From the NCBI GenBank assembly GCA_039621445.1, contig CP154954.1:23324954-23388953 (forward strand): DNA of 64,000 bases, given 5' to 3'. The stretch comes from Euglena gracilis. Its lineage: Eukaryota. Each line of letters opens with the position of its first letter. Within the stretch, counting starts at the first letter, position 1. The position numbers were made by a program, and so were the translations under genes. The notes beneath the pieces are model-generated. The model saw nothing but the letters and a program-made list of their open reading frames with translations. It had not been told where the DNA came from and searched no databases. Positions 22,701 to 64,000 of the stretch are shown piece after piece.

Positions 22701-22822
22701 ATCCGCGAACAGAATTCGGCTGACTTAGGACGCTGACCTGCACCCTCGATGACTGCGGAAACCACCAGGGTATCCCTGGGGCTACCGAGCTTCCTCGGCA
22801 CCGCGAATTCGGACATTCCGAA

Positions 22823-23222
22823 TGCATCGCAGAAACATACGCGGAAAATGATTTTTTGCAAGGGTGGTAATATTTTACCACAAAAATCCTCAAAAATCGG
22901 TACATTAGTGGGTAAATCCCACCAATGAAAACACACATACCATAGTTGGGTGAACCATTCCGCTTCCGGAATGATGGGTATGAGAATAACTGCACGGGCT
23001 TCATCCCGCAGAATTTTCTCAACCGCACATTCGATAAGTTTTGGGGGAGGGTGCATCCATATCACCGTATCACCCCAAAATTTATCAAATGCGTTGGAGT
23101 GTTGTGACCAATGACGTGGCAAACGGACATGTGCATTGGATGAAAAGGCATCGATTTACAATGCCAAATAAAAAGAATCAGCCAATGTCGCGATTTTGGA
23201 AAACCATCGTTCCAAAATGCGA
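22823..23222 (-). pseudogene. Dam-like (N6-adenine/N4-cytosine class) DNA methyltransferase domain inside pol of copy A
   Basis: IDAFSSNAHVRLPRHWSQHSNAFDKFWGDTVIWMHPPPKLIECAVEKILRDEARAVILIPIIPEAEWF fits the DIRS-MT/phage Dam pattern; in frame with RT; in-frame TAA at 23156-23158. Confidence 0.7.
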
Positions 23223-24641: not shown

Positions 24642-27600
24642 CTACTCCAAGTCCGAACCGGCCGCATAGCCGGCAACGGACTTTTTGGTGGAATAGACGG
24701 AGTTCAATGAGCGCACCGCCATTCGGGCCTCATTAAATTCCCCGTCCGAGGTCTCATCCCCCTCCCTGCCCGAAGCCGGGGTGTCCTCCTCCAAACAAGA
24801 TACCTTGAAACTGACCTTTTGCCGTTTGGAGGAGTTACCACGGTCCTCCCGGCGCTTACCGCAATTTCCGTAGCCGGGCCGGGGGGAACGAGATCTGGGA
24901 CATTTGGATGAGTGGTGGTCTTTGGAACCGCAAAGTGAACAACGGGATTTGTGGCGGGATTCCGCATAACGGGGTGGAACGGTATTCCGTTCTTCTGTCG
25001 AACCGTCGTGGCGAACGGGTTTCCCGTCGACCATGACCGGTGTACCGGGGTTTCCCCGGTGACTCCCGCGAAGTGGATGATCCACTTCGCGAACGAGATC
25101 GTGAAGAGTCGCGATTGAAATCCCGTTTTCGGGTAGGAGGTCCAGGTGACCGACCGCGAGAAGGACGAGTTTCCCGACCATCACGCGATGGGGACTTGGG
25201 CCTACTACCGCTAAAGCGGTTCTCCGAAGAACGTGAAACTCCGGATTGTTGTGAAAACGTCGAGGAACCCGATCCCCGTGAGGAGGGCGAGCCCCTTGGG
25301 CTTCCAATATGCTTTCGCGCATCGGGATTCGGGCATTCCCGAGACATGTGACCAGATTTGTTGCACATAAAGCACAGTTTATCCGCGCCTTGATCCCAAG
25401 AACGCTGATTCCGCGTTTTCGGTCCCGTGGTGGGTGATCTTGGTGACATGGGTGATTTTTGCAACGCATTAACGGCACCCGCAGGGATTCCCGCGGTGGG
25501 ATGCGTTTGGAAAGCGGACTGTATTTGTCCCAAAACTTGTGTGAGCTTGAGTTGCTTTGACACATAATTCCAACGTTCGGCAAGAGTCATCTCATGCCCC
25601 GCCAACTCCTCGCGATGGATATCCTTCACGAGGGATGGTGTGAAATGCAACAAAACCGCATCGAATTGTTCGCGCATTTGCTTCTCACTAAGTTCATCAA
25701 CTTTGGAACCAAGTGCAAACCATTTGGCATACCAAAGGTCGATGGATTTCCATTTGTGATCCGTTGGTACGCATTGTCGCCATTTCTTCGCCAGGGTAAT
25801 CCTGGTGACCAAGCTTGAGTTGGTTGAAGCGTGTTGCTCAACCAGGTCATCGAATGATACGCCATTACGTATCACCAAGTTGCGTGCGCGCTCTCGCTCC
25901 TCTCTCGGTAGGCAATCGATGAATTCCATCTTGACTACCTCGGGATTCGGGTCTTGGGTGGGTCCCTTTAGTGCCCAGTAGTACCTCCAGTCCCCAAAAA
26001 ATTGTCTCCATGTGGTTGGATCCCCGTTCCATTGGGGTTTCACCTTGTTCGCGATTGCGATGGTGCCCTTGAAGTCTCTCTGAGTAACCCGCTGACCCTG
26101 GAATTCCAGGGGTTTGGGTCAGGGTAATTCTTAACACCAAACGCGTTTCGCGGATTTTCCGCTCCATGTGAACCCCGTGCACGATTTCCCGCACCGAGTG
26201 TAGGGGTGGCAGGATTTTACTGCGGGAATTGCGAAAAATGCGGTGAAATTTGCCCGGTGGGGCGGGTTTCCCGCCGAAAACCCGACGGGTGGTCTGGTAA
26301 TCCAGAAACCGTTGGTGATTGGTATGGTCGCGAATGCAACACATGACCAACACCAGGTGTGGGCTGTTGGCTCATTCCTCGTACAAGGTTGGAATTTTGA
26401 ATTTCTTGGTGGAGACCCGAATTTTCGAGCGGGGGGTCAATTTCCCCATCGGAAATGTGTTGTGGAAAGTGGGGTTGCGGTGTGGGCAGATGAAAAGGTG
26501 GTACAATTCGCGTTTTCGCAGGTGGTTGTATCAAATTCGCGGTGGATGTAGGGATTCCTACTCCAGAAATGGTAATTTGAGAACGTGATTCCGGGACATT
26601 TGGAATAGCAACCGCAGCGCTTACCGCGGTGGGTGGTGGCACAACCGGTACCGGAGTGGACATTTTATCCAAACTCGCGGACAAGACATGCACCGTTTCT
26701 TCCAAATGTTCCACCAACTGGAGTTGGCCGCAAATACGGTCAACCTCAGTCTCCAAATGCCTAACGCGTTTGCGGTAACGGGAAAAATCGTCCAAGTGTG
26801 GTAACTTTTCAGAAACCAAGTGTAAATCTTGGACAAGTTGTCCTTGGGACTCCTCCACATTCCGGAGTTGACCCGCAAGCGCTTTTACTGCATTTGAGAC
26901 AATTTGCAATTGGTGGAGTGAATTGGTGGGGGTTTCCGCGGTGGTGTCCGAACTTTCCGCGGTTGGCTTTTCCAACAACGCAGAAATTCGTCCATCCAAC
27001 CGTGAAACCTCGTCTTGCATGGAACGGGCATTCCGATTCACAGATTCCTCAAGTTGAATCAAACTCGTGCAAAATGCTTGCAAGGTTTCCTTGTTGTCAC
27101 CAAGCATTTTGTATAAAATGAGCGAAATTCGGGTGACTCCGATATCCGAGCGCGCGAGATATTGGGAAGTGCGCGAATTTCCGCTACTGTGGTGGACAAC
27201 AAGGTGCAACGGGTTTGTAATTCCCCAATAGCGGCTTGAATACCACTAATGTCGGGAATTCGCTTGGAAAGTGCGGAAATATGCTCCTGCAAACCGACAA
27301 CGGTGGCATTAATACCGCAATGTCCGTTTGCGATTGTTGCTGCGCGAAATCCAACCGTCGTGCGCAATGGGCGATTTTCGCGTGCAGGGTGGTTAATCCA
27401 TCCTGATTTGCGGCACAATGGCAGGATTTCTGCTCCAAGTGTAGGATGTGTTCCTCCAAAACCTGGATTTGCGAACGGGGAACAAAATTTTCTTGCACGT
27501 TCGCCTGAAATTGCTTCAAATGCTCGATTTCCGAGCCAAGATGTAAAATCCGTTGTTGGGCTTCTTTGAAAGAAGTAGTGAGTGTGGCAAAATGCTGAAC

Positions 27601-30935: not shown

Positions 30936-31222
30936 CTTGGTAGCAGATTAGGTCACGATCCTACACATACAGCCCATACAGAAAGAAACGCTACCAAGTA
31001 TTACACTTGGTAGCAGATTGGTTACAATCCTACGCTGACTGGCAGCGGAGAGCCCCTGCACCGTTATTACACGGTCGCAGCGTCAGCTCCCGGCTTCTAG
31101 TCAACGTCTAAGCAGACGAGCAGGCTCCGGAAGGCTCTGTACGGTATTACCCGTTACATCCCCTCTGGTGCCAGCACAACTGCTTAGTTTTGTGGGTTTT
31201 TGCTGTTTTTGCCATCAGAAAG

Positions 31223-34200
31223 ATGCAAAGCACAGGCCCCAACCATCAATTCAACTATGCCTTATTACAGGCATCATTGCAAGACATTGACCAAGAAACT
31301 GGGGATTGGAAGCTTTTATGTGAAAGTGCTTCCAGTTCCCACGCCGATGAGGCACAATTGGTTCAATTGTCACAATTGCAACACTTGTCGTCATTGACAG
31401 TGGTCGGCGATGAGCCCTCCACATCATCGGCTTCAGAGGCTAATGCGGCCTCTTCCGCACTCACCTTGCCACAACGGGGGTATTCGCCTCTGTCTGCGGC
31501 AATGGTGCAGCTGCGCACACCGGAGAGACCCGTGGTGATTCCGCCACCGGGCTTCTCTGGTGATGGTGGGCTAGAAACGCCGTGTTTCTTTCAACCCCCA
31601 CCCGCTCTTCCACCGGCAAGCCCTTACAGAGCTTTGCCACCACCACCCGATATCGGGTGCTATCCCGCACTACCTTGGCAACCGGAGACTCGCCTAGTGG
31701 TGCCGGAATTCTCCGGTACATCCCAACCCATGGATGACTATGGGAAGGGCACTAGTGAACTCCTCACTGCTGAGGATGTGCAGGATATTGTTGTTCGGCT
31801 TCCAGGGGATCACCCCCTTGTGAGGCAGTTCAACCATGTGCAACAATGCGTTGCAGAGTGTGCAACCGCATTGAACAAAGTGCTTCAGTTTGATGAGGAC
31901 AACCAGAAACATGTCTTCACCAAGCTGGAACACTGCTGGAATTACTTGCAGGAAGTTGGCAAATATTGCCAAAGGAATTTCGAAAGTGCGGGTATTGACC
32001 TTGCAACCTTTCGGGAAACCTTTGACAGAATGTGCCAACAACTCCCGCTAAACTTCCGGCAAATTAGTGAATGCATGCATGAAGCGGAAACGCGGAATGA
32101 CTCCAAGTTTCTGCACTTGCATGACTCACTACAACACCTATCGGGACAAATGGAGTCCTGTTCATCCGCGTTGTTGCATTTGCAACAACAGTTGCATGCA
32201 CGAGATTCCTCGTCTGCAACAACCCACAATGGTGGATTTGTGTCTATGGACCATTTCACCACTTTGTCCGCAACTTTCCATGAATCGCAACACCGCATTA
32301 TGCAGTTGTGCGATGAAACGGAAAAGTTTCGGCAATTGCAGTCACAAGCCAACGAGAATTTTGCTCCCCACACGTATGTGCGGCAGTTGGAGGAGCGACT
32401 TTCCCGTTTGGAGCAGAAAACCTGCTATTGTGACGCGAATCAGGTTGGATTATCAAATCTGAGCGCGAAAGTGGCGGAAATGACACAACGGCAGGATTCC
32501 CTGCAGTTGCAATTGCAATCCGACATTGGCGGGATTAACTCGGCCATTGCGGGTTTGCAACAGAGCTTTTCCGCACTTTCCCACCGAGTTCCGGACATTA
32601 GCGGTATTCAGACTGCTTTTGGGGAACTCCAGACCCGGTATGCATCGGTGTCTACCAAAGTAATGGAAATGCAGTCTATACCTGCAAGTTCCAGTTCTCG
32701 GATTACCGAGAACTGTAATTTCAAGGCATTTTATGACAAAATGCTCACTGGTAATCAGGAAACCTTGCAGGAATTCTGCAACAGCCTATTACGGCTTGAG
32801 GAATCGGTGAATCGGAATGCCCGATCCACCCAAGGTGAGATTACCAGGTTGGATGAGCGGATTTCCGCGTTGTCGGATAAGCCACAACCCGGAAATTTGC
32901 TCGTGGGTACCACAACCGCGTTGTCGGATGACCCTGCACCGGTTGCACCCACTAACACACCAACCAAGGTGACACCACCTTTGCAGATCCTCTCAAGTGC
33001 TGTGAAAGCATTAATGGGACAACTCCAATTATTGGATGAGTCTCACGGGAAACTAGTCCGAGATGTCACCGAAATTTCCGAAAGGATTCCGCATCTGGAT
33101 GACTTTTCCCGTTACCGCAAGCGTATTCGCGCTTTGGAGGATGAAGTTGACTGTATTTGCGGCCAACTCCAACTCGTTGAGCATTTGGAGCAAAGTGTGC
33201 ATGACTTGTCTGTCGGTTTGGATAATGTGTCCAACCAACAGCGGGTTTCACACCGTGATTCGGCAGTATGCATTGCCGAAAATGCGCCAAATGCTCCAGA
33301 TTCGCGTTTCCACAACCCGAATCTGGGTGCACATGCACCACCACCACCCGTGTCCCGATTGTCACAATCCGCGATTCCGCGAATTGTACCACCATTGGCC
33401 TTGTCCACAACCCAAACCCAGTTTTCGGATGAATTTCCCATTACGGGAACCGAATTTTCGGAAAACACGGCGATTCCGCCAAGTCTCCACCAAGAAATCC
33501 ATCATTCCAGGCTTGTGCGTGGAATGAGCCAAACCCGTACACCGGGAGTGGGTCACATGTTGCATGCGCGACATACCCCCACACCGGAGTGTCCCCCTAT
33601 TACGGGTGACCAACAGGGTTTGCGACCGGATTTCCGGTACCAGGATTCACCTTCACCAGAAATTTCGCGATTCCAACAAGAATCCGGAAAGGATACGCTT
33701 GGTGCTCGAGAGTACCCGGGCCCGAATCCACGGAATACCACCGAGGGTCATTGGGTTCCTCAGGAAGACTTCAAGGGCACCATCGCAATCGCGAACAAGG
33801 TGAAACCCCAGTGGGATGGTGATCCAACCACGTGGAGACAGTTTTTCCGGGACTGGGAGTATTACTGGGCATTGAAAGGGCCAACCCAGCACACAAACCC
33901 GGAGGTGATCAAGATGGAGTTCATCGATTGCCTCCCAAGGGATGAGAAGGAGCGCGCACGACAACTCGTGATTCGCTACCGCAGTTCCTTCGACGACCTG
34001 GTGGAGCAATACGCTTCCACCAGTTCAAGTTTGGTCGCCAGGATTACCTTGGAGACCAAGTGGCGACAATGCGCCCCACCCGACCGCAAGTGGAAGTCCA
34101 TTGACCTTTGGTATGCCAAATGGTTGGGACTTGCCTCTGAAGTGGATGAGCTGAGTGAAAAGCAAATGCGTGAACAGTTTGACGCTGTTCTCATGCATTT

Positions 34201-35200
34201 CACGCCTAGCCTCATCAAGGATATCCATCGTGAGGAGCTAGCGGATCATCCAATGACTCTTGACCAACGCTGGAATTACGTTTCCAAGCAGTTGAAGCTA
34301 TCACAGCTTCTTGGTCAAATTCAATCCGCGTATAACGCACACCCAACCGCTGGATTACCGGCTGGTTCGGTGAACGCAGTGCAAAAATCACTGGTTTCAC
34401 CCACTCCACCAACCACGGGATCGAAAACGCGATATCCGCGTTCTTCGCATCAATCCACGGACAAATTGTGCTTTTTGTGCAATAACCCGGGACATATGTC
34501 TCGTGATTGTCCGAATCCTGATGCGCGAAGGCGTATCTTGAGTCCGCGAGGATCGACCTCATCACGAGGTTCGGGTTCCTCTGGATTTTCACGCCAGTCG
34601 GGCAATTCACGGTCATCGGGTCCCCGTTCCGGCGGTATTAGCCCCCGGTTCCCGTTCCGCGATGAGCGGAAACACGGTACCCCTCGGGGTAGGTCACCCG
34701 GTGCCCCTGCCAAGAAGCGTGATTCATATCGCGAGGCATCGCGATTCATTTGGCGAAGCGGATCATCCTCTTCGTCAACTTCATCGGGAGAACCCCGATA
34801 CACGAGTCCTGGTCAACGGAATGCCCGTTCACCACGGCGGTTTGACGGTAAATCGGGAAACCGATCACCCCGCCATTCTGAATCTCGTCACAAATCTCGT
34901 TGTTCACTGTGCGGATTGAGTGATCACCACTCATCCCTATGCCCAGGGTCTCGTTCCCCCCGGCCAAGCCACCGCCATCGCGGTATGAATCGCGGTGACA
35001 ACGGTCACTCCTCCAACCGCCATAAAGTCGGTTTCAGGTTACCTTGTTTGGAGGAGGAAACCCCGGCTTCTGGCAGGGAGGGGGATGAGACTTTGGACGA
35101 GGATTTCAACGGGCCCCGCATGGCGGTGCGCACGTTGACCTCCGCGTATACCTCCAAAAGGCCCGCTGCCGGCTATTTGGCCGGTTCGGACCTGGAGTGA
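31223..35200 (+). CDS. gag: Intact large Gag (~1325 aa) of copy B
   Basis: Uninterrupted ORF after the PBS; KPQWDGDPTTWRQFFRDWEYYW capsid-like motif; CFLCNNPGHMSRDC and CSLCGLSDHHSSLC; Ser/Arg-rich tail. Confidence 0.88.
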   Translation: MQSTGPNHQFNYALLQASLQDIDQETGDWKLLCESASSSHADEAQLVQLSQLQHLSSLTVVGDEPSTSSASEANAASSALTLPQRGYSPLSAAMVQLRTPERPVVIPPPGFSGDGGLETPCFFQPPPALPPASPYRALPPPPDIGCYPALPWQPETRLVVPEFSGTSQPMDDYGKGTSELLTAEDVQDIVVRLPGDHPLVRQFNHVQQCVAECATALNKVLQFDEDNQKHVFTKLEHCWNYLQEVGKYCQRNFESAGIDLATFRETFDRMCQQLPLNFRQISECMHEAETRNDSKFLHLHDSLQHLSGQMESCSSALLHLQQQLHARDSSSATTHNGGFVSMDHFTTLSATFHESQHRIMQLCDETEKFRQLQSQANENFAPHTYVRQLEERLSRLEQKTCYCDANQVGLSNLSAKVAEMTQRQDSLQLQLQSDIGGINSAIAGLQQSFSALSHRVPDISGIQTAFGELQTRYASVSTKVMEMQSIPASSSSRITENCNFKAFYDKMLTGNQETLQEFCNSLLRLEESVNRNARSTQGEITRLDERISALSDKPQPGNLLVGTTTALSDDPAPVAPTNTPTKVTPPLQILSSAVKALMGQLQLLDESHGKLVRDVTEISERIPHLDDFSRYRKRIRALEDEVDCICGQLQLVEHLEQSVHDLSVGLDNVSNQQRVSHRDSAVCIAENAPNAPDSRFHNPNLGAHAPPPPVSRLSQSAIPRIVPPLALSTTQTQFSDEFPITGTEFSENTAIPPSLHQEIHHSRLVRGMSQTRTPGVGHMLHARHTPTPECPPITGDQQGLRPDFRYQDSPSPEISRFQQESGKDTLGAREYPGPNPRNTTEGHWVPQEDFKGTIAIANKVKPQWDGDPTTWRQFFRDWEYYWALKGPTQHTNPEVIKMEFIDCLPRDEKERARQLVIRYRSSFDDLVEQYASTSSSLVARITLETKWRQCAPPDRKWKSIDLWYAKWLGLASEVDELSEKQMREQFDAVLMHFTPSLIKDIHREELADHPMTLDQRWNYVSKQLKLSQLLGQIQSAYNAHPTAGLPAGSVNAVQKSLVSPTPPTTGSKTRYPRSSHQSTDKLCFLCNNPGHMSRDCPNPDARRRILSPRGSTSSRGSGSSGFSRQSGNSRSSGPRSGGISPRFPFRDERKHGTPRGRSPGAPAKKRDSYREASRFIWRSGSSSSSTSSGEPRYTSPGQRNARSPRRFDGKSGNRSPRHSESRHKSRCSLCGLSDHHSSLCPGSRSPRPSHRHRGMNRGDNGHSSNRHKVGFRLPCLEEETPASGREGDETLDEDFNGPRMAVRTLTSAYTSKRPAAGYLAGSDLE

Positions 35201-46415: not shown

Positions 46416-47830
46416 TCACTCTGTGGTTGGAGTGGGGGAGAGATGTTTGGTCCAATCCAAACCCAGCCGTTTCTCCTTGCAATACTTTACTAAGTCAGCA
46501 TTGTACCGGGAGAAAAAGTTACCTGTGGGCTCCCACGTCACTTTATCTGACCCTTTCCATTTCGTCTTAAATTCCCAGGTGCCCTGGGGTGTCCTGTGGT
46601 GGCTCAGTATTTCTTCTGTGATCCATTCCTCCGGCCCCGCGTCCGGATCCCAGACCGTTCGCTTGTGATAATACAAGGGAAGGGGGTTACCTCCGAAAGT
46701 GTCATCCACGTAAACTTTTAATGATCGTCGTGGAGCCTTCAGCCGGTGCCCCGGCTTTATCTCCACGACATATGAGCTCTCCCCCTCCCTTGCGACCACC
46801 ACTCCCGGTCCTAGCCACTTGGAATCAAGCTTGTCACCTGCATTGGGGGGTCGCAGGTACCACACCTTTGCCCCAACCTGCAGGTCACTCAAGACATTCC
46901 TCCCCACATTGACTTGGGAGGACTGTTGAATGTGCAAATTGTTGAGCTGCTTTGCCACCACTTGATCAATTTCCTTCATCCTCTTGAAGAATGCATTTGC
47001 CACCTCACACTCAAAAGGAGGCTCCCTGGGAATCCCTCCCAAAGGTCTTTCCCTACCAAACAGAATTTGGTAGGGAGACAGGCCCCCCTCCCTCGGGGTG
47101 TCATGCAGCCTATCAAGAACCTGTGGGAGAGCTTCCACCCATGTAAGCCGCTCATCGATCGGAATCTTGCGGATTCTCTCGATGAGTTGCTGGCCCGCTC
47201 TCTCAGCCCTTCCATTGGTGTTATGAAAATACGCCAGAGAGAAAGCGTGCCTTATTCCCAGAAAAGCACACATTGATTGCCACCAACTGCTGATAAACTG
47301 CGCCCCCTGGTCCGTCGTTACTACAATCGGGACTCCAAAAGGTCGCCATTGGTGAGCAACCATCATTTTTGCCACCCTGCCCCCTGTAAGGCCCTGTTTC
47401 TTACATGGGACAGCCACAACCCACCCACTGTGCCTGTCTACGCACAAGACAATGGCATTATGGAGGGACCCTTCATGCTGAACAGGTGGCATGTCAAAAA
47501 TGTCCAGGGCAACCGAAATCATCGCCTGGGGTGGGATGGGAGTGGGTTCCAAAGGGCCTTCCAAGAATCGGGGTATTTGGCAGGCCTGGCAGGTCTCACA
47601 CTCACCCATCACCACCTTGGCGAACTTTTTCACCGATGCCTCGTCCGCCCACTTGTACCGTACGGACATGGCATCCCACAGCCGTGGGAATCCGGCATGC
47701 CATGGAAATCCCTGACCACTGCGTTATGGAGGCTCCATGGAACACACAGGAGACCATCCACACACATGAAACCATTCTCCACCCTCACACCCTTGGGCCA
47801 TGACATCCCTGGTGTTTGTGTTCGAGCATA
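46416..47830 (-). CDS. Integrase plus chromodomain of C (frameshift within the Zn finger)
   Basis: CETCQAC; VALDIF / TTDQGAQF / GRAERA DDE triad; WITEEILSHHRTPQGTWEFKTKWKGSDKVTWEP chromodomain. Confidence 0.93.
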
Positions 47831-51621: not shown

Positions 51622-54600
51622 CTACTCAGCATCCTGAGGCCGAGCAGGTGCGGGCTGGGCCGGGCCCTCGCCCTTCCCTTCACCCTGCACTGGCTGGTGA
51701 GGAGAGGCATTCGGCCCTTTCCCTTTGCCTTTCCCTTTCCCCCAATCTGAAAAGCCTTTGCCCTTGCCTCCCTTGCTCCCCTTCCCAGAGCAAAAGAGTG
51801 CATTGTATTCTGGGCATTCCCTTTTGAAGTGAGACGGGGCACCACAGTAGTAACAACCTGATTGGCGGTTTGCGGGTGGGTGTTGCCAATTTTGCTGGGG
51901 GGGGCACCGCAAGTGGAGCTTTAACTGGCTGCACCTGTGGTGGGCCTGGCTGGGCTGGCTGTTGAACCGGGTCAACTTTCTTCGCCGATTCACGCTTTGC
52001 TGCCACCTTGAGAATCTCCCCCTCCATTTCAGTCTCACCCTGGTCGATGGTGAGAACTTTGGGAGAAAAGCGTGTGGTTTTGGTATACTGGGGCTTGTGG
52101 TCGTTGAAATTCAGGACCTTATCCTGTCTTTCGCGGATCCACAATTTGTCATCCACAAGCCTGAAAATTTCATCAAGGGTGGTTTTCCACTCTATTCCTT
52201 CGATCTGCAGGGGTCTGGGGTAATTGGCAATCCGCCTCCCATTAAAATTGATCAACCTTTCCATGGGAGTCCTGGCGTCAAAAGAAACAAAAACAAAACA
52301 TGTACAAAAAAGGAAACTCCCACTCCCTGGTTTTCACTGCCTTGGGGGGAGTGCCACACCCCCAAACACTGATATTGTGTTGCTCAACCACCCTGATCTG
52401 ACAATCAGGGGGCAAACCTCCCTGCACGGACGGGGATTTTCTGTGTTAATATTATAGTTATAATATATATAATAAAATTTAATAAATTAATTATTTAGTG
52501 GACTATCAGACACATCTTAATATATAATACTAATAATAAATCTTAATAATTTCCCTCCTCCCTCCTTCTCTACCCCCCTCTCTTCAGCTCTTCCTCCTCT
52601 CTCCTTCTCTCTTTTTTTCCTCTCACCTCTTCGGCCTTCCACCTTGGGGGGAGTGCCAACCAAACTGATAATTGTGTTGCTCAACACCTGATCTGACAAA
52701 TCAGGTGGGGCAAACATCCTGACACGGGGATTTTTCTGTGTTTTAATGCAAGAATCCTCTGTAATCCATTTCGATATAAATTCAGGAACTCTGTTGAGGA
52801 GCAACCGAATTGCTTCCTCGGCAGATGTATCCTTCACGCTGAGCTGGGCTGACATAAACCTTACCCAAAAATGATTCCAATCTGCCCGGGTGGTCTTTCC
52901 AGGGGTCTTCAACGAAATGTTATACCAAGCCCTCCTAGCTTCAAAGTTATTTTCAGGTGCATATCTCGCCTTGATCCGCGCAAAAACCGGCGTGAATCCA
53001 GGCTTTGCACCTGAACGTTGCAGAAATTTAATTTCCTGTTTGAGACTGTCACACAAACAGGACTCGAAAATCTGCAGCTTCATTGCCTCCCCGTAGTCCC
53101 TCCCCAGGGAAATGGCCTGCCAATACATTTCCCAATCTGCCTCAAAATTCTGCCAATCAGGAGACCTATCGTCGAATCGGGGAGGTCTAATCGACTTGGC
53201 AATTTCTGACACCACCAGGTCACCCCCCAGGGGTAAAACCGGATGGTGCTGACCCCCTGTTCCACCCCCCGCAGAAACTGGTCGAATGGAATAAGTGGGA
53301 CCTTGATTCCCGCTTTGCAATGAAGGAAAAGATCCTGAAAACAATGGGGTTGGACCTTCTTCAAGTGGTTCCAAAACAAAACCAATCTCAGGGGTGGCTC
53401 GTGCGGGAACAGGCTGCACAAGGTCAGCCGGTTTCTGCATCGCTATCACTGGTTCCACATTCACAGTCACAGGCACTACCACCGGTGCTGGGACTGCGAC
53501 TGTGGAAGATGACGATTTCTCCTTTAGGTCTCTTTCAACCTGGAGGAGCTTATCGTTTATTCTTGCTGCTGAAAATTCTGAAGATAAAAACTGGTTGGCC
53601 ACTTGCCCCAATGCAGACTGAACTCCTTTCTCAACATTTTGAACTGCCCCCTGCAGATTTTGTGTTTGGGATGAGCATGATTGGAGTCCCAGCGAAAAAC
53701 CTCGCATAGCACCCTCCAAATCATGGATCCCCTTTTCTGCCGATTGCTGCCCCCCAGCAATACTTTGCATCAAACTATGCTGGACCTGTGACTGCACAAC
53801 TTCATTACGCAGGACCCTGCCATGAATTTGTTGTATCAACGCATCCTGTCTCTGGGTAAGCACCGTAAATTGCTGACCCAGTGTCAGGATTTGCTGATTC
53901 TGCTTTTCATGGAGCAATCTGATTTCCTTCATTTGCTCCTGTTGAAAGCTTTTCACCTCTTGTTGGATTTCTTGCAGTCCTCTCTCCAAATTCTCATTTT
54001 TCTGTCTCTCCTTTTGATAATTCCTTTCAAACTGTTGCACCAAATTATTTTCTGACCTGACACAGGTCATTTGGATTTGGAGTTCAGCCACGGCCCGCTG
54101 AACAAAATTGGAAATATGGTCCTGCTGCTGTGCAGAAAATTCCAGCATATGTTGATCGACCTTATTTCTGCATTGAAGCAAAATCTGCTCAGCCTTTTGG
54201 TCCAATGCATTTGTTAATTTGATGCCCTCCGAAACCAGGTGTTCCACTACTTGTGCCCTCGTCTCATCCAAAGACTTTTCAATATGGACAGCAAGTGGCT
54301 GTGCATCACGCAGAACCACTTGCTCCTCCATACTCGAAACTCTGGCATTCACCTGATTAAGCTGAGTTGATAGTCCCTGGGCCCACAACTCCCACCGTTC
54401 ATTTTCTTCCTCCCAAAATGGGTATGGGGGAGCCGGGCCCTCCTCCCCACAATCCATTTGGGGCTGGGCTGGCTGGGAATTATTGTTCAGAAAAATGTCC
54501 GTTTGCCCATCTTTCTGAGTATCACCCACCCCCAGATCTTGGTGGGGTCTTTTCACCTCCATCACTGACTCATCAGATGGGGGTGTGCCCCTCCCTCGAA

Positions 54601-55330
54601 TTAGGGGGTTGGTGGGGGAGCCCTCCATCGGGTCTTCCAACGGCTCCCCCCCTGGGTGTAAACCCTTCTGCCACTCTTGCACCCGTGCCTTAACCACCTC
54701 CCGGGGATATCTCTCACCCTCCTCTGTTAAAAATACATCCAAGGGAACTTGGGCTTGGATCAGGTCTTGCATATCCTTATCCGTTAGCTCATCCCCTTGG
54801 AAAACCCCCTGGACCTCCCCTATGGTTGCACCCGCTGAACAGGGACCATGTAGAGGATGGGGCAGAGGGACAGGGAGTAAAGAAAGATTTTCATTGGGCT
54901 GAAAGTGCATGTGGGAGTCCACAAAACCCAGCCCTCCAGTGGGTGCTGCTACCCCACTGAAGGTCTGATCCCCGTTAAAATTAACAATCGCTGTCCCAGG
55001 AAAACACATTGGTGAAAAATCAGGGTTTCCAGCAATCTGCAAAAATGCTGGTGTTGAATCTGAAGTGGTAACCGGGTTCCACTCAATTTGCTGAATATCG
55101 GTGGGCTGGTTTGTAAACTCAAGATTTCTGGGGCCACTGGGAGATACCAAATCAGAAAATTGAATATCCCCATCCCCAGAAAAATCTGGGCCAGAATTCC
55201 TGAAAAATCCTGGTGTCCTGCCGAAAGTAAATTCCTCAGCAGCCGGCTGGGAAATTAACATAAGTGCACCCAGGTTTTCAGTCGAAGAATGTGCCAAATC
55301 TGCAATGGCGTGAGAAGTATTTCCACCCAT
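51622..55330 (-). pseudogene. gag: Gag of C (long coiled coil, capsid-like region, CCHC knuckle); interrupted at ~52270-52640 and frameshifted
   Basis: PPRFDDRSPDWQNFEADWEMYW; CYYCGAPSHFKREC; ends QDAE-TAG. Start codon uncertain. Confidence 0.85.
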
Positions 55331-55419
55331 CTGAAACTGGGGGGAAATTTTCTGAGAATTCTGAAAAGTCGCTGCATTTTCAAACTGATCATGACTAACA
55401 ACATGATCAGTTGACAAAC

Positions 55420-55430
55420 CTCTGCGACCA
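55420..55430 (-). promoter_or_regulatory. PBS of C (TGGTCGCAGAG; 1 mismatch to the iMet-type TGGTAGCAGAG)
   Basis: Directly abuts the CA end of the repeat at 55431. Confidence 0.75.
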
Positions 55431-55947
55431 TGTCCGCGGAACCCGTCCTCGGGGTCCCCGGCGTAGGATCGATTTTCAATATTTCCGTGGCCGTCAGCCA
55501 CTCCTGGGTGCGTCGGCAGGTTTTCCCCCGATCCCCCCCGGGGACTGTCCCCCCCCGCAACCCGGAGGGCTCCAGTTCCCGTGGTCTCGGCACACGCCCC
55601 ACCCTGCCCGGCCCCCTCGAGGGGAACCGGACACACCGAATGCAGGGGGTGGGTGGGCTCAGGTCCACCCCCCGGAGTGTTTTGGGCTGTTGCTAAGAAC
55701 GGGGTAAAACCTGGAATTTCCCTGACCTCGGCCCGTGGACTCCCTACTTGCTTTTCCCCTCCCTGATTCCCCGCTGTGTGCATGCTTGTGCGCGGCAAAC
55801 CACACCAAACGTTCTTCTTGAACAGCACAGCACACAAATGTCAATTGATGATTTGGGATGTACAAGTGTGAATTGTTTGCGTAGGTTGAAGATGGGCAGA
55901 TGGGAAAATGAAAGAATACGGACGAGGAAGACCCTGCAGAGGGGACA
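55431..55947 (-). mobile_element. 5' LTR of C (outer boundary tentative)
   Basis: Near-identical to 40470-40987. Confidence 0.6.
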
Positions 55948-58900
55948 ACGTGTTTTTTAAATTCTGTATTCTGCCCCCCCCCCCCGAACTTCGGCTCCGA
56001 ATGAGCCTGAATCAGGGGCAAATAATCCATTCTGACCCCCCCTCCCGATTTCGGCTCTAAACAGCCAAAAATCAGGTTGGGGATTGGAACCATTCTATTT
56101 TCTGAGAGGGGCTCCCCCCCCCCCCAGTTCTGGGCTTTTGTCACCGAACTGGCTGGGGTGTTTATGTTTTGGGCTGAAATATTCTGGGTAAATATTTCTC
56201 TCCAGCCCCCCCCCCCCCGTTGAGGGATGACCCAGCCCGAAATGGTCGAGAGGAGGATTACTTTTATGCCAACCGACTGTGGAAAATCCTTAAGCCGGCG
56301 TTTGAGACGCCGGGCTCAGGACAGAACCGCGTCCCCCCCACGGGCTTTCGGACGCCGGTTCTGTCCTAAAGCCCGGCGTTAGGAACGCCGGCTTTGTCCA
56401 AAGCCCGGCGTCCGATTTTCATTCCAAAAAATGTCACCAAAAGTGCCCAAAAGTGGCCCTAAGGTGCTGGTATGAGTGTTTCAACCATCAAGGACAATGA
56501 ATTTTGCCATATGGGGACCAGTGGGGTGGATATCCAAATTTGGTGAAAATTGGCCCAGATTTGGAAATAGAGTACCGTGCAGAGTGGAAAGATCTGATGA
56601 GCATCGCTGGTCGTCTGTTTAAAGAGCTTTCGATCGAGGGGGAACTTGGTACCCTAACGTTGCACGCAGCCCGAGATACGCTCGCGATCGTCGGATCGGC
56701 CAGAATCTGAGTCGAAATTTGTCGCAATTTTCAGTGATTTTTGGTTTAAGATGCTTAATAAACCTTACAGAAACGTTTTTCCTCTTCGAATCAACGACCC
56801 GAGGGCCTTGGGGGGGGCACCAGAGTTGTGAAATTAGGATTCCCCACTGACAGAAAATATGACCTTAGACGTGGCTGAATTGGTGGGGACGATGTCAGAG
56901 TCGATGAGGGCTCATGGTGCTGACACGAAAAAAGACCCCCCCTGGCCGAAGAAGGGGAAAATTGGTCAGAGGGACAGAGGGAGGGAGAGTCTGGCCGGGG
57001 TGGGACGCCGGCCGCCTGCAGCCGTGGGCAGGTCACCCGTTCTGTCCAGATGACGCGTCCAAACCCCGCCTCCGTTACGGAAACCGGCGGGTTGGAAAAG
57101 GTGGACAAAACCGGCGTCTCCCCCCCCCGTCTCGACAGCCCAGCTTGTCGAAAGGCTTCTGAAAAGGAGAAAGAATTCTGAAAATAATTTGGTTGAGATG
57201 CTGATGAAAAATTCCAGGAGGGGGAAACCACATTGAACAGCCAAAACCCCGCGATCGCCGGAATTTGGGAATTAATTTCAGATCTTCTAATATCCATCCA
57301 ATGACGGTTTCTGTCTGGCCCCCCCCCCCCCCGTTCTGGGCTCTTGTCCAGCCGGTTCTGCTGAAAGCCCGGCGTTCCCCCCCCCCCCGGACCACCCGTT
57401 TGACGCCGGGCGGACAGACGGCCCGAGAGTGTAGGAAAAATTTTCTTCTCGAAATTCTGGCTCTTCTCCCTGTCTGAAAACAGGAGAAAAAACCCCGGGG
57501 AAACTCTGAATTTAATTAATTTTTGATGTGAAGAATCTGAAAATTCTGCACAAACAACCATAAAAAAGCCTGAAAAAACTGGGAAAAGAAACTGAGAAAA
57601 CAAACTGTCACTGCCACAGCCACAGTCATTCTCATCCTGATTGATTAAATTCCTGCCCCCCCCCCCAGGGTTTTCGGTTTCGAACAACCGTAAACCTGGT
57701 GGAGGTAAAAATGCACCAGCCACAGCCCAAATCTGTGGTTCTGGGTATTATTGCTGCCCCCCCCCCCCCAGCCCGCCCTTATCTGCCCCGGGTTGGGGGA
57801 GGAAGAGAGACAAAAAGAGCTGCCCCCCCCCCAGCCCAGAAATTGGCTTCCTTTCGGCCTGATTTCTGCTGGGAGAGATAAAAATGCTGCCCCCCCCCCC
57901 CCCAGTCCAGAAATTTGGCATTCTTTTCAGCCATATTTCGGCTGGGAGAGGTAAAAATGCTGCCCCCCCTCCCAGCCCAGGGGCCTTTGGTTCTGCAAAA
58001 AAAAAACCCTGGAGGTCCATAATAAACTGCCCGGAGGCTGTCACCACTTAAAAGTTCCGGTGCTACTGAACGGCCTGAACCCTGAACCCAGCAACCCGGG
58101 TCACAGAGTGGATGAAACAACCCAAACGACTCCAAATCTGCTGGGTGAACCGTAAAAAGAATCCATTAAAACATCCTCACCTGGCCCATCTGAACATGCC
58201 AGATGACTGTAAATGACATCGGCCATTGGCTCCATGACGACCCGGGTCAGTCATCTGGAAACTCAACTGGCTGGGCCGAAAAAAAGCTGTATTTTCTGCT
58301 GCTCAGCCTGACCCCCCCCCTCGACCTGTCATCGGCCAGCTCAGGTCAGGGGGGAAAATTTGTCCAGCCGGATCCCCGACCTGCCTTTGGCTCGGCCATC
58401 GGTCAGCCCAGGTTAGGAGAAAAAAGTATTAAAAAGTCTGCCCAGCCTGCCCCCCCCCCCCGACCTGTCATCGGCTCAGGTCAGGGGGAAAAGAACATGG
58501 GAAATTCTGCCCAAGCCCCCCCCCCTCCCCCGCCGACCTGCCTTTGGCCCTCGGCCTGCCCAGGTCAGGGGGAAAGGAGTTTTATAAAAGTCTGCGCAAT
58601 CAGACCCCCCCCGACCTGCCATCAGCCAGCTCAGGTCAGGGGGAAAAGAGTATAAAAAAGTCCCAGCCTGACCCCCCCCCCCGACCTGCCTTCGGCCTGG
58701 CCAACCCAGGTCGGGGGGAAAAGATTTTTAACATGAAAGGTCTGACCGGCTGCCCCCCCCCCAGCCCAGAATTCGGCCTACTTCCAGCCGCATTTCTGCT
58801 GGGGAGGGATTGACATTCCTCCCCCCCCCGACCTGACCACCAGCCCAGGTTTCAGGAGGAGGGGGGAAAAATAACCATTATTCCTGTCCCCCCAAAAAGC

Positions 58901-61555
58901 CAGATTATCGGTCCACAGCCGTAAATCTGTGGTGGGGGAATTTAATGTTGTTCCCCCCCCCCCGAATTCGGCCAGCCAGCCAAACTTCAGGGTTGGGAAA
59001 ATATAATTGGTCTGTCACCCCTGGATTCGGCACGAAACAGCCTGAATTCAGGGTTTTATACATCCCCCCCCCCAGGTGTTGGCCGACAGCCTGAACCTGG
59101 TGGGAAAAGAAACCAAAAGTCTCCGACATAAAAAATGGGCACTCCTTCTGGCACTGGGGTCTCGGTTCAGCCCAGCCAGGGCTGGGTCCACAACCGCAGA
59201 AAGCTGTGGAGCTCGCTGCAAAATTTGGACCAGCCACATACCCTGGCTGTCCGTTGCTTCCAACGGTCGCTGGTCCCATGACCATGTGAACCTTGGACAG
59301 CCTTGATAAAAATAACCCTCGGCAGCAAATAATTCTCCGAAATTCCTGAGTGTATTCCCAAAAGGCACAGCCAACTTTGGTTGAGGGAAAATAAAATATC
59401 CCTTGATCAGCCCCCCCCCCCCCCAGCACGGTTCTGCCAAATCATGCTCAGGATGAGGGATGGGGTTCGCAAACAAAAATAATCTGATTCCCCCCCCCCG
59501 TTCTGGCTCGCACACCTCCAGAAACGGGAGTTCAGGGGAAGAAATACCCCATGGCAGCCCCCCCCCCCGTTCTGGCCCGAACACATCCAGAAATGGGGGT
59601 CCAGGGGAGGAAATACCCCAGGGCTGCCCCCCCCCTGTTCTGCGACCTCTTCCAGAAATGGGGGGGTCCGGGAGGAATTGCCCCAAGGCTGGCTCCCCCC
59701 TCCCTGCCCGAGGCTGAACTCTTCAGGGCCAGGGGAGAATAAAAACATTCTGAAAACCCAATCTGGGAGTGGATTGTTGCCATTACCACGCCTCAGAAAA
59801 AGGTTTTGGATCGGTCATCCCACTGGCAAGCTCCTGAGATTCCTTGGTCCACCATTCGATACGGGCAGCACTGCAAATTCAGTATAATTCACCACCGTTT
59901 GGGTCCCAAAGATCTTGCAAATCTTTGAAATTCTGTCCACTGGACTTCGGGTCCGGCAATTCCATGCCGAGACTAGCCCCATTTGTAAATTGCACCTGCA
60001 AAAAACACAAAGCATTTTCCACCCCATCTCATGCAACCATTCTGCAAAATGGTCACATTTAGGGCGTGGAGGAGGCAGCCTAGCCCCCATTTGCTTATCA
60101 GGGCGAGTTTCTGAACAATCCACAGGTCTAAACCCTGTGGACGTCCAAAACCTCCCCTCCAAACCTCCCTTGTGCTTTCCAGGGTGAGTTTCTGAACAAT
60201 CCACAGGTCCAAGCCCTGTGGACGTCCAAAACCTCCCCTCAAAACCTCCCATCAGGACTCCCAGCTACACTGAAGGCCTTCAGGGGGTGTTTGTGAGGAA
60301 AAAGCTAGTCTAGAGGCCTTGAACCTCTAGACCCTTGTGGCCAACCTGTCCAACCCACTGTCAATCCACAGTCACCTTTGGGCAAATTCCCAACCCTCAT
60401 GACCAGGGTCTATGGCTGAACCATATACCCTAAGTCCAATTCTGTATGTTTGTGTGCTGGAAGCCCTTCCAATTGGGGGGGATTTGGTCCGCGCGTCCAT
60501 AGGCTCCTTTCTTACCCAGTTTGGATCTCCCTAATTTGTGGCGGATGGCATCTGGAAATCTGCAACTCCACTGCCAACCCCCTATATCATTGGATGCGTC
60601 TTCTAAGGCGCTATCCAATGATACCCATTTTAAGGCGTCACTCAGCCGTTTCCCAACTTTCATTTCCGGAGCCACTGCAAGGCCGGAGCGTGGCTGTCCA
60701 AACAGCCAACACCCCCTCCCTTGCGACCCTTAGTCGGACACGCTCAAATCCCACATTTGCATACCCCCCTCCCTACTTCACCTCGACCCAGGTGGAGAAG
60801 ATTGGGTGGACCTTGCCGAAAAAAATGATGGAACGTTGCCCCTCCTAGCAGTCTTGGGGTACACAATCCCACAAAGTGGGATATTTCTCCGGTTTTTGGG
60901 TCAGTAATACCCCCACTCCTCGCAGACCCACTGCCCCGGGCACCACGTCCACGTTGGTCCCCCCTTGCCCTTGCCGTACCCCTTGCCCATACCGCGTCCA
61001 AACCCCTTGCCCTTGCCCTTGCCCTTGCCGCTTCCATTCCAGCCACCCTTACCCTTGCCTCGTACAGGCGGCGTTGGGGGTTTATGTGGGTTGTCCCCCG
61101 TCCCGGTCTCCGGCTTCTGCTTCTTTGTTTGCGTCTGCGCGTCGCGCTTTCCCTCCTCCCTGAGGGGACAACGCTTCTTCTTGTGGTCTGTGGCGCCGCA
61201 CTTGTAGCACCCCCGGTCTTCCACCGGGGGACTGCTTGCTGCCGCCTCCGCCTTTTGCTCCTCCTTCTGTTCTTCACTTGGTACATAAGGAGGGAAGGCT
61301 GACTTGGGTGTGCCCTCAATTCTGGTAATGGAGGACGATTTGACGGTGACAGGCCCTTGTCCTTGTCACCGTTGGGAGACATACCAACCTGGAATGAAAA
61401 ATAAACAACCCACACCCGGTTTCCTCGAGTCTGTCCTTTAATACTCCTCAGGGAAACCGTTTATCAGTGGTCTCTCCTCGTTCCAAACGAGGAGATACAT
61501 ATCCTCTCTCAAACTTCTCCACGTTTGTTCTCGTACACGCACCCCCCGAACTCCA
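55948..61555 (-). repeat. Second copy of the 40988-~45686 region (3' part of a tandem element, or part of a very long LTR), truncated by satellite
   Basis: Colinear identity with the left copy; extra ~1.15 kb at ~56293-57435; CCHC/GKGK ORF at 60901-61224 (CYKCGATDHKKKRC). Confidence 0.85.
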
Positions 61556-62922
61556 AATTTTTCAGATTCGCGAATGTCGCGATCTGAATCGTGGAAATCG
61601 CGATCGGAATCATGATTACCATGATTTCCGTCGCATTTCCCGCGAAAATTTTTCAGATCCGCGAATGTCGCGATCTGAATCGCGGAAATCGCGATCGGAA
61701 TCATGATTACCATTATTTCCGTCGCATTTCCCGCAAAAATTTTTCAGATCCGCGAATGTCGCGATCTGAATCGCGGAAATCGCGATCGGAATCATGATTA
61801 CCATGATTTCCGTCGCATTTCCCGCGAAAATTTTTCAGATCCGCGAATGTCGCGATCTGAATCGCGGAAATCGCGATCGGAATCATGATTACCATGATTC
61901 CCGTCGCATTTCCCGCGAAAATTTTTCAGATCCGCGAATGTCGCGATCTGAGTCGCGGAAATCGCGATCGGAATCATGATTACCATGATTTCCGTCGCAT
62001 TTCCCGCGAAAATTTTTCAGATTCGCGAATGTCGCGATCTGAATCGCGGAAATCACGATCGGAATCATGATTACCATGATTTCCGCCCGCGAAAATTTTT
62101 CAGATTCGCGAATGTCGCGATCTGAATCGCGGAAATCGCGATCGGAATCATGATTACCATGATTTCCGTCGCATTTCTCGCGAAAATTTTTCAGATCCGC
62201 GAATGTCGCGATCTGAATCGCGGAAATCGCGATCGGAATCATGATTACCATGATTTCCGTCGCATTTTCATGCGAAAATTTTTCAGATCCGCGAATGTCG
62301 CGATCTGAATCGCGGAAATCGCGATCGGAATCATGATTACCATGATTTCCGTCGCATTTCCCGCGAAAATTTTTCAGATGCGCGAATGTCGCGATCTGAA
62401 TCGCGGAAATCGCGATCGGAATCATGATTACCATGATTTCCGTCGCATTTCCCGCGAAAATTTTTCAGATTCGCGAATGTCGCGATCTGAATCGCGGAAA
62501 TCGCGATCGGAATCATGATTACCATGATTTCCGTCGCATTTCCCGCGAAAATTTTTCAGATTCGCGAATGTCGCGATCTGAATCGCGGAAATCGCGATCG
62601 GAATCATGATTACCATGATTTCCGTCGCATTTCCCGCCAAAATTTTTCAGATTCGCGAATGTCGCGATCTGAATCGCGGAAATCGCGATCGGAATCATGA
62701 TTACCATGATTTCCGTCGCATTTCCCGCGAAAATTTTTCAGATTCGCGAATGTCGCGATCTGAATCGCGGAAATCGCGATCGGAATCATGATTACCATGA
62801 TTTCCGTCGCATTTCCCGCGAAAATTTTTCAGATCCGCGAATGTCGCGATCTGAATCGCGGAAATCGCGATCGGAATCATGATTACCATGATTTCCGTCG
62901 CATTTCCCACGAAAATTTTTCA
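61556..62922. repeat. 91-bp satellite array, ~15 copies, same family and orientation as 36450-40469
   Basis: Same unit sequence. Confidence 0.98.
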
Positions 62923-64000
62923 ACAGGCCCAGACCGTTACAGTTTGCGTGTGAGGTTGGATTGGCTGATCGTCTTTCCCCGTCTGTGGACCACCAGCGAT
63001 CTTGATGACTCAAATGACTCCCTGTCGGACTATTATTCTTGTGCTGCCACAAAAAATTTCCACATGGCAGAAACAGTTGGCACCATACACCTCCGCACTG
63101 CATGCCCACACGGGGGGAAGAAGCCGGAAGACGCATATCTGAAGACGGGGCGAGGTGATTCCCTGACAACAATGGGTGATGTGGAAACCAATCCAGGCCC
63201 GCTGACGGCATTTAATGGACCCTGTGGTGAAGTCATGGATCTATTGGACCAACTTGTTGCCATGAACATGACTGATTTCTTTCGGATCAAGGCTAAAATA
63301 CCACTGCGGCAAGGCCCCGATGGCTCCTCCCGTTCACTTCTTCCCAGAGCTACATACTGGCTGAAATGCACTTTGTGTGACATTGAAACCATCACTGCCT
63401 CGGCAGGTTGGTGCCTGCACCACAGGGAAACCTGCCCTGTTTTTTCAGCCACAGTATATCCATCTACTGAGACAGCAAAAGTACACTCCGTAACAAGCCG
63501 AGGATACCCCCAAGAACAAGCTCGGGAAAGGTTTTCAGAAGGACACCAGCCGAATGGAAGGGGGGAACGAATCACCACCCATGGTGACGTCCAAACACAA
63601 CCAGGGCCCATCTACTTCCGTCTGGCCACCATGGAAAGACCGACAATCCCTATCCCCAGGGGATTTCAAGAAAATTTCATTCGGCACAGACTGCTGGCGA
63701 GCCTTCAAGAGGTGGATGCAGAACTTCAAACTTTCCGAGACACCTTCCCTTCCGATGTCCTTGTTGAGGACGCTACCGTCTATGAGCTCACCGAATGTTG
63801 GGAAGTTTTGAGAGGAGTTCTGTTTGTGCTCATAGGGCTATGGCCACATCGACCACCACGTCACGACTCCCCATCGAGTGTGCATGCCATTATGTGGTTG
63901 CTGACCTGTTTATGGTCCGAAGTATGCAACATCGGCGAGGCCTTTCACTTCTACCTGCCCCCTATTCACCTAATGGCACTACCCAACGTTCTCCGGCCGA
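62923..64000 (+). CDS. Stop-free frame running off the window with two 2A-like motifs; probable polyprotein of a non-LTR retrotransposon or endogenous virus, 5'-truncated by satellite
   Basis: Own translation: GRGDSLTTMGDVETNPGP (63148-63201) and GRGERITTHGDVQTQPGP (63556-63609), with CTLC...HRETC between them. Confidence 0.65.

Follow-up and report, generated by a model that had tools for sequence, protein, structure and literature searches.

What do the last bases of this window encode, and is that product still made? The window, i.e., the whole stretch analysed, comprises 64,000 nucleotides of Euglena gracilis DNA (assembly GCA_039621445.1, contig CP154954.1, positions 23,324,954–23,388,953, forward strand). 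At positions 62923–64000(+) it carries a stop-free frame with two peptides of the 2A type, the signals for ribosomal skipping (StopGo). According to PMC3708506 and bioRxiv 10.64898/2026.09.24.754024, a nascent D(V/I)ExNPG peptide cannot be joined to the next prolyl-tRNA; the chain made so far is set free, and synthesis goes on from the proline. The stretch is probably a dead, 5′-truncated copy of an interspersed repeat that is very abundant and, most likely, a retrotransposon of the non-LTR (non-long-terminal-repeat) type; the long open reading frame (ORF) of this repeat begins with a StopGo cassette.

Open frame and 2A-like peptides

Translated in frame +1, positions 62923–64000(+) give 359 residues with zero stops (product P0001), as had been stated in an earlier reading of this DNA made from its letters alone (the sequence-only reading). 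From stop to stop the frame is longer: it has 412 codons, the first at 62764, and reaches the window end. Its first 53 codons (62764–62922) are 91-bp (base pair) tandem satellite and lie outside the homologous coding sequence. An ORF beginning with the ATG at 62788 sits inside the array and was rejected as its artefact.

The first 2A-like peptide, GRGDSLTTMGDVETNPGP, occupies 63148–63201(+) (residues 76–93; NPGP at 63190). With the predicted skip point it reads GRGDSLTTMGDVETNPG/P, with a canonical class A core and L-T upstream. The second, degenerate peptide, GRGERITTHGDVQTQPGP, occupies 63556–63609(+) (residues 212–229; QPGP at 63598); written with the break point it reads GRGERITTHGDVQTQPG/P, with E replaced by Q and N replaced by Q in the core. 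The GDV starts are 136 codons apart, and 12 of the 18 residues are common to both 18-mers. Both peptides had been claimed beforehand, the first as a D(V/I)ExNPGP match resembling T2A and the second as a degenerate copy 136 codons on. Both claims are borne out; the T2A-type string RGSLLTCGDVEENPGP is given for Alphapermutotetravirus in the table of Rao et al., as far as that table is represented here (PMC12338488).

The class A core D(V/I)ExNPG/P is present in the first motif only, as DVETNPGP at 63178–63201. The second motif is DVQTQPGP; Q takes the place of both E and N, and the motif falls outside the class A core. Upstream of the first core stands S-L-T-T-M, against L-L-(S/T)-C in the relatives and in T2A. 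The window's own peptides have diverged, reading LTTM and ITTH where the family has LLSC. Inside 63148–63201 no variant reaches a share of at least 10% among genomic copies. None of the variants listed among matched copies restores E or N in the second motif.

In a deep mutational scan of P2A and F2A, positions D12, E14 and N16 tolerate no substitution except E14H in P2A, NPGP is intolerant, and so are both leucines of the upstream cluster (bioRxiv 10.64898/2026.09.24.754024, in the part of the preprint describing the scan). Since Q stands at two positions intolerant in mutational scans, the second motif is probably inactive, and therefore at most one site could skip at this locus.

A frame and motif produced by chance would account only for the satellite-derived first 53 codons. 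For the remainder this explanation is already refuted and its probability is negligible: D[VI]ExNPGP is expected 2.9e-4 times per window (six-frame composition) and was observed once; a profile of the spacer module, described below, matches at E 1.6e-12; a paralogue is 91% identical. Forty first-order Markov simulations gave zero D[VI]ExNPGP motifs; their longest stop-free run was 339 codons.

The ORF continues past the second peptide for 131 residues (63610–64000, +), is ended by the window edge and yields no Pfam family. No family was found for the whole of P0001 by a Pfam scan at E≤1, and a PDB sequence search returned nothing meaningful.

Zinc-finger-like module between the peptides

The spacer on the + strand between both peptides contains the pattern CxxC-x14-H-x3-C (C149-x2-C152-x14-H167-x3-C171). 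A putative CxxC...H...C zinc finger had been predicted at this place; the pattern is indeed there and belongs to a conserved module at 63217–63450(+), with putative zinc ligands C149 (63367), C152 (63376), H167 (63421) and C171 (63433). This module is the most conserved part of the spacer across relatives. The spacers of 11 of the 14 relatives (see below) hold the same module, with the pattern C-x(1-2)-C...H-x(3-4)-C. Four alignment columns, those of P132, C152, H167 and C171 in the window product, do not vary, and that of C149 hardly does.

A module-only profile was built from eight distant relatives; the 2A motifs, the window and the close relative P0002 were left out. Against 1043 six-frame ORFs it matched only the window ORF (residues 99–176, i-E 1.6e-12; next ORF, E 0.63). 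Judged by this profile, the homology of the module does not depend on the 2A motifs. The leader (residues 1–92) shows no significant similarity to the module, i.e., no internal repeat was found.

AlphaFold2, run on a shallow alignment, gave a model with a mean pLDDT of 64.5 and a core at 88–92 over model residues 71–100. The predicted fold is alpha-beta-beta-beta-alpha, with the four ligands on the beta-hairpin and helix. Low-scoring rows among the structure matches (dsRBD, U1-type zinc finger) are not relied on. Atlas feature matches for the module are zf-BED-like, at 0.85–0.86, under the lead level of 0.9. The module would presumably bind zinc and nucleic acid.

Relatives of the cassette

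One close relative was found. P0002 (444 amino acids, on a 3075-bp contig) is 91% identical over 256 residues to the window product in a word-indexed search. Its first motif reads NPGL, its second is degenerate in the same way, and its frame shifts past window residue 274. Among near-length proteins the word-indexed searches with P0001 gave P0002 alone; among longer proteins they gave none. A HMMER search of 1.84 billion representatives had 10 hits at E≤1e-3. One of them is P0002, here 90% identical, and the other nine are distant metagenomic proteins; all 10 are singletons from metagenome or run assemblies. A search with one of them, P0004, added P0012–P0015, which makes 14 relatives in total. 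P0008 matches query residues 102–175 only, at a library-wide E of 5.6e-5. In metagenome contigs P0001 gave 37 pattern matches, none confirmed.

Multiple 2A sites are usual in this family. Two or more strict D[VI]ExNPGP motifs occur in 9 of the 14 relatives, and two or more loose motifs in 11; the maximum is in P0007, with 3 strict and 4 loose. The family consensus is TGRGDxLLSCGDVExNPGP, and 11 of the 14 relatives carry 2–4 such sites.

A degenerate DNA pattern for GRG-x6-GD[VI]ExNPGP had a single match in metagenome contigs, L002. Its bases 1–2070 form a decayed multi-2A element: 2A-like motifs stand at three places in two frames, one of the three motifs being broken, and a Cys/His-rich segment comes after them in another frame. 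A viral contig, L001, was found with P0004 as the query and dropped: the match is weak, covers 45 residues, and the six frames hold no 2A-like motif.

In three relatives the 2A cassette leads into a C2H2 segment and a reverse transcriptase region of the non-LTR type. The order in P0004 is two 2A sites with the module, then the C2H2-like segment, then the reverse transcriptase, whose best solved match is 8c8j_A, 'RNA-directed DNA polymerase' (E 0.09, among LINE-1 ORF2p rows). P0012 (47% identical) and P0014 have the same region before the reverse transcriptase as P0004, behind one and three 2A sites, respectively. P0013, a relative cut at its N-terminus, has an RVT_1 match at E 2.7e-12; among solved structures it comes closest to R2 proteins (E 0.01) and LINE-1 ORF2p (E 0.03). 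A C-terminal Cys/His and PD-(D/E)xK-like pattern in P0013, reminiscent of a restriction-like endonuclease, gained no support in a PDB sequence search. Exo_endo_phos was found by Pfam in none of the 14 relatives. By analogy with these relatives, the downstream ORF of the window element would encode a reverse transcriptase.

Other cargo is also seen. In P0009, residues 412–478, between two 2A-type motifs, are an SLBP histone-hairpin RNA-binding domain (Pfam E 1.3e-16). This arrangement suggests a host RNA-binding domain captured as StopGo-released cargo. In P0015, residues ~40–225 are a stretch of ~180 residues between 2A motifs with neither the CCHC pattern nor a Pfam family at E≤0.1.

Such variety (the SLBP domain of P0009, the ~180 residues without a family in P0015) would suit a transposable element of another class, i.e., a DNA transposon, an LTR/DIRS-type or a non-autonomous element, that carries a mobile 2A-zinc-finger cassette and has no non-LTR reverse transcriptase. 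High copy number suits any transposable element, and the region past the second motif is related to P0002 alone in the 1.84 billion representatives. However, a non-LTR-type reverse transcriptase is the sole enzymatic domain seen with the cassette, the 14 relatives showed no transposase, integrase or tyrosine recombinase, and copies cut off sharply at the 5′ end are most typical of non-LTR insertion. Another class of element is thus unlikely, and a non-LTR-type element remains the preferred reading.

Copy number and variation

Public sequencing runs were compared with the stretch 62840–64000, which takes in 83 satellite bases. In DNA run X1, 3207 contig pieces match it at 85–100% likeness: 933 at ≥99%, 1379 at 95–99%, 728 at 90–95% and 167 at <90%. 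A lack of conserved copies had been named in advance as a possible refutation of the 2A claim; the pieces found speak otherwise. About half of the sampled words are also present in runs of three further organisms (codes B, C and D), and the repeat is therefore common to related species. Many copies and a 5′-truncated window copy both fit a non-LTR element; the contigs give no positions, so that the count concerns number and not dispersal itself.

Variants were analysed at 37 listed places in 62990–64000; three rows upstream of 62990 were left out. In frame +1, 16 of the 37 are synonymous, against 28% expected from their transition/transversion mix (one-sided p 0.037). Of the 12 listed variants beyond 63744, the point at which P0002 departs from the frame, 8 are synonymous (p 0.0065, subset chosen post hoc), and for this reason frame +1 is taken as the coding frame up to the window end.

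A modest synonymous excess among shared variants would also be seen in a large, non-mobile host gene family that uses 2A for dual products, as is reported for sea-urchin NOD-like receptor genes, and 2A-like peptides are reported from some cellular genes (bioRxiv 10.64898/2026.06.17.732966, in the passages of that preprint that treat them). Against a host family stand the number and divergence spectrum of the genomic pieces, the position of the truncated copy next to a satellite, in a window whose remainder is full of transposable element remnants, the frame-shifted paralogue, and the near-absence of the sequence from sampled RNA reads. A host gene family is accordingly quite improbable, and the repeat is further treated as a probable retrotransposon of the non-LTR type.

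State of the window copy

The copy at 62923–64000(+), with frame +1 open to the window end, is a 5′-truncated copy of the high-copy interspersed repeat. Its 5′ boundary is the 91-bp tandem satellite at 61555–62922 (Tandem Repeats Finder: 15.1 units, 96% matches); other copies have no satellite at the same place. At 62923 loose ends show other copies running upstream into non-satellite sequence (4 contigs of X1, 1 contig of 202 letters of X5, 3 reads of RNA run X24). Read by eye, the letters of these ends upstream of 62923 encode the upstream residues of P0002. By tblastn, homology to P0002 starts at 62928, five bases past the satellite end: positions 62928–62987(+) match P0002 residues 151–170 in a frame that differs from that of the main ORF, and P0002 residues 1–150 have no counterpart in the window. 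The frame breaks near 62985, and two extra bases follow 62985 in two X1 contigs and one X5 contig. A native start codon is absent. Because the satellite abuts 62923, the frame breaks near 62985 and the native start is missing, the window copy is dead and not expected to make protein. Truncation at the 5′ end is typical of target-primed reverse transcription.

The satellite is rich in TCGCGA-like CpG motifs and yields spurious ORFs of 60–190 amino acids on both strands. In DNA run X1 the words of the satellite sum to a depth of ~1.47 million, those of the ORF and element to 1e4–6e4, and the satellite is thus probably a major satellite of the genome. Its word depth is ~25–100 times that of the neighbouring repeat.

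Weighing of the retrotransposon reading

Several observations count against a non-LTR-type element with a working StopGo cassette. They concern the enzymatic part, the peptides, the module and expression. No enzymatic domain (reverse transcriptase, endonuclease or other) and no viral domain is visible for the element itself, the window ending 391 bases past the second motif, and the sole close relative, P0002, shifts frame and ends, and so gives no enzymatic part. The relatives' reverse transcriptases have no match in the window. In P0004 the RVT_1 match (E 1.2e-4, 22.3 bits) lies below the Pfam cut-off of 29.6 bits. The 2A-module-2A unit is 24–33% identical to that of the relatives linked to a reverse transcriptase (P0004, 38% by HMMER), and the cassette could move between element types.

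The first site may skip weakly despite its canonical core, because L-T replaces L-L and the leucine cluster was intolerant in the scan, which concerned P2A and F2A and not a T2A-type peptide. The module model has no significant counterpart among solved structures (Foldseek, best E 1.2, none ≤0.001; VIA-align, best Z 3.6, none ≥5). The synonymous excess among shared variants is only modest, and all 7 of the 7 places where the window differs from all, or nearly all, copies are non-synonymous. In RNA run X24 (~5% read, 12.9 million records) 8 reads match, none of them on 62996–64000, and just 3 reads cross 62923, all from other copies.

These points leave the proposal of a non-LTR-type retrotransposon probable. 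The sequence-only reading, which had proposed a modular polyprotein processed at multiple 2A sites, stood in part. It holds for the family, in which relatives are multi-2A and three lead into C2H2 and reverse transcriptase regions. It does not hold for the window copy, which is truncated, has a broken frame and no start, and has a degenerate second site.

Proposed mechanism

In intact ancestors the ribosome would first translate a leader of at least ~230 residues. At the T2A-type peptide (...GDVETNPG/P) the Gly-Pro bond would not be formed, the leader would be released and translation would resume at the proline. The next product would be a module of ~120 residues with a C2HC zinc finger, and further 2A sites, where intact, would detach it from the protein that follows. 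One ORF would in this way yield the enzymatic protein and, as separate products, small proteins that presumably bind nucleic acid. The outcome is likened to that of ORF1p and ORF2p, which need two ORFs. In the lineage of the window copy the second site has decayed (GDVQTQPGP), and the module would stay fused to the following part.

Surrounding window

The window is eukaryotic and rich in mobile-element remnants. Pfam gives RVT_1 at 22079–23155(−), an ORF with zf-CCHC at 24856–26118(−) and an integrase core at 46416–47723(−) (rve, E 1.4e-10; by Atlas, chromodomain-bearing Ty3/gypsy integrases, score 0.96). A stop-free frame of 1362 codons at 31112–35200(+) holds a zinc knuckle (zf-CCHC) that passes the Pfam cut-off and, below threshold, a match to NPV_P10; another, of 1107 codons, at 52517–55840(−), has no Pfam family at E≤0.001. 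Both long frames probably belong to further mobile elements. An ORF at 60901–61224(−), a short way upstream of the satellite, contains the CxxC...H...C knuckle-like string CYKCGATDHKKKRCP and a Gly/Lys-rich tail, and has the look of a Gag-like remnant. Three short tandem arrays, their periods 69–81 bp, lie at 57823–57973, 59490–59701 and 60092–60250; two of them begin with runs of ~10 C. Rfam gave no family at threshold in the window. A dinoflagellate spliced-leader motif had 0 matches, even at up to 3 mismatches, and the taxa that Atlas assigned to a neighbouring integrase were of mixed groups.

Comparison with known 2A systems

The nearest described systems are non-LTR elements. Parts of PMC3708506 and of bioRxiv 10.64898/2026.06.17.732966 report 2A-like peptides at N-termini of non-LTR ORFs, some of them active. 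In excerpts of bioRxiv 10.64898/2026.09.24.754024, 330 of 1547 class A contigs are reverse-transcribing elements, mostly non-LTR-like. Elements of the APE type, such as L1Tc/Ingi of trypanosomes and CR1, L2, Rex1 and Crack of sea urchin, amphioxus, molluscs and cnidarians (Heras 2006; Odon 2013, PMC3708506, in the sections that describe them), resemble the present repeat in a class A peptide near the N-terminus of a high-copy repeat's long ORF. The same sections give two more likenesses, namely many genomic copies with mutated, probably inactive motifs, and a proposed N-terminal product apart from the enzymatic protein. They describe the APE-type sites as single, located in ORF2p and rarely in ORF1p, with one 2A just upstream of the APE or PHD domain, whereas here relatives have 2–4 sites bracketing a repeated C2HC module. 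The peptide here is of the GRG...LL(S/T)CGDVE type. Relatives have a C2H2-like segment between cassette and reverse transcriptase, and no Exo_endo_phos by Pfam.

Tetraviruses (Alphapermutotetravirus, e.g., Thosea asigna virus; Alphacarmotetravirus, e.g., Providence virus) share the form (G)RG-x-LL-(T/S)-C-GDVE-x-NPGP. The table of Rao et al., in the portion represented here, gives RGSLLTCGDVE[E/S]NPGP for tetraviruses, Permutotetraviridae and Carmotetraviridae, and the family consensus TGRGDxLLSCGDVExNPGP equals this viral string at most positions (PMC12338488). In the same portion GRGDSL, LTTMGDVE and LSHGDVE are absent, and LSCGDVE has two entries, both metagenomic or unclassified. Tetraviruses use the peptide in a capsid/replicase polyprotein; here its setting is a repeat of a eukaryotic genome, and relatives carry a reverse transcriptase. 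In RNA viruses with several 2A sites (Paavivirinae picornaviruses, iflaviruses, totiviruses), serial StopGo sites likewise divide one ORF into several products (bioRxiv 10.64898/2026.09.24.754024; PMC11512398). There the sites part capsid and replication proteins; in the present family a single small zinc-finger module is repeated, with sites on either side of its copies.

An endogenous RNA-virus polyprotein, tetravirus-like or picorna-like, with T2A-type sites processing viral proteins and amplified later, would explain a peptide closest to the T2A type tabled for Permutotetraviridae and Carmotetraviridae, and also the number of sites, multiple 2A sites per polyprotein being best known from RNA viruses (PMC12338488 for the T2A type; bioRxiv 10.64898/2026.09.24.754024 and PMC11512398 for multiple sites). 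It is nevertheless very doubtful: the genomic pieces are counted in thousands and have diverged, and Pfam gave no RNA-dependent RNA polymerase, protease or capsid family in relatives, but a reverse transcriptase is present. The degenerate pattern GRG-x6-GD[VI]ExNPGP had 0 matches in IMG/VR viral contigs, a collection with few RNA viruses. A reverse-transcribing repeat of the non-LTR type accords better with these findings.

The non-LTR repeat may also be compared with LINE elements, in which ORF1p is a nucleic-acid chaperone, encoded by a separate ORF, with zinc knuckles CX2CX4HX4C. One likeness is a small Cys/His zinc-binding protein made besides the reverse transcriptase protein. The module here differs in being CX2CX14HX3C in a fold of ~80 residues, with neither a Pfam family nor a significant structural match.

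The papers examined contain no description of a 2A-zinc-finger cassette, and none was found that joins ribosomal skipping, a retrotransposon and a restriction-like endonuclease. The peptide strings SCGDVEANPGP, SCGDVESNPGP, LLSCGDVE and GRGDSLLSCGDVE have no occurrence in the full-text literature, a scope outside which lie the supplements of two preprints that may list such peptides.

A wider proposal is put forward tentatively, as possible and no better than that: the family would be an undescribed eukaryotic retroelement lineage, APE-less, with the N-terminal part of a single ORF made up of serial T2A-class StopGo cassettes releasing C2HC proteins and, in some members, captured host domains (SLBP), its peptides sharing ancestry with the T2A of tetraviruses. 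If so, it would be a cellular reservoir or recipient of the most widely used 2A type. The window locus is in itself modest, a broken copy beside a satellite. The family would bear on whether viral and cellular T2A-type peptides have a common origin, and its peptides, decayed to different degrees, would offer structure-function studies a new set of T2A-like variants from nature.

That retrotransposons carry 2A peptides, which are in standard use as tools, is already established; most eukaryotic cases described so far have a single site, at the N-terminus of ORF1p or ORF2p. For eukaryotic genes, the portion of Rao 2025 represented here gives up to three 2A instances (PMC12338488); P0007 of the present family has 3 strict and 4 loose. 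A multi-site T2A family with zinc-finger and captured RNA-binding cargo would show StopGo as a general multi-protein device of mobile elements. Different here, relative to the systems compared, are a C2H2 and reverse transcriptase partner without detectable APE in relatives, a T2A-type peptide in a genomic repeat, and serial 2A sites around a repeated C2HC module.

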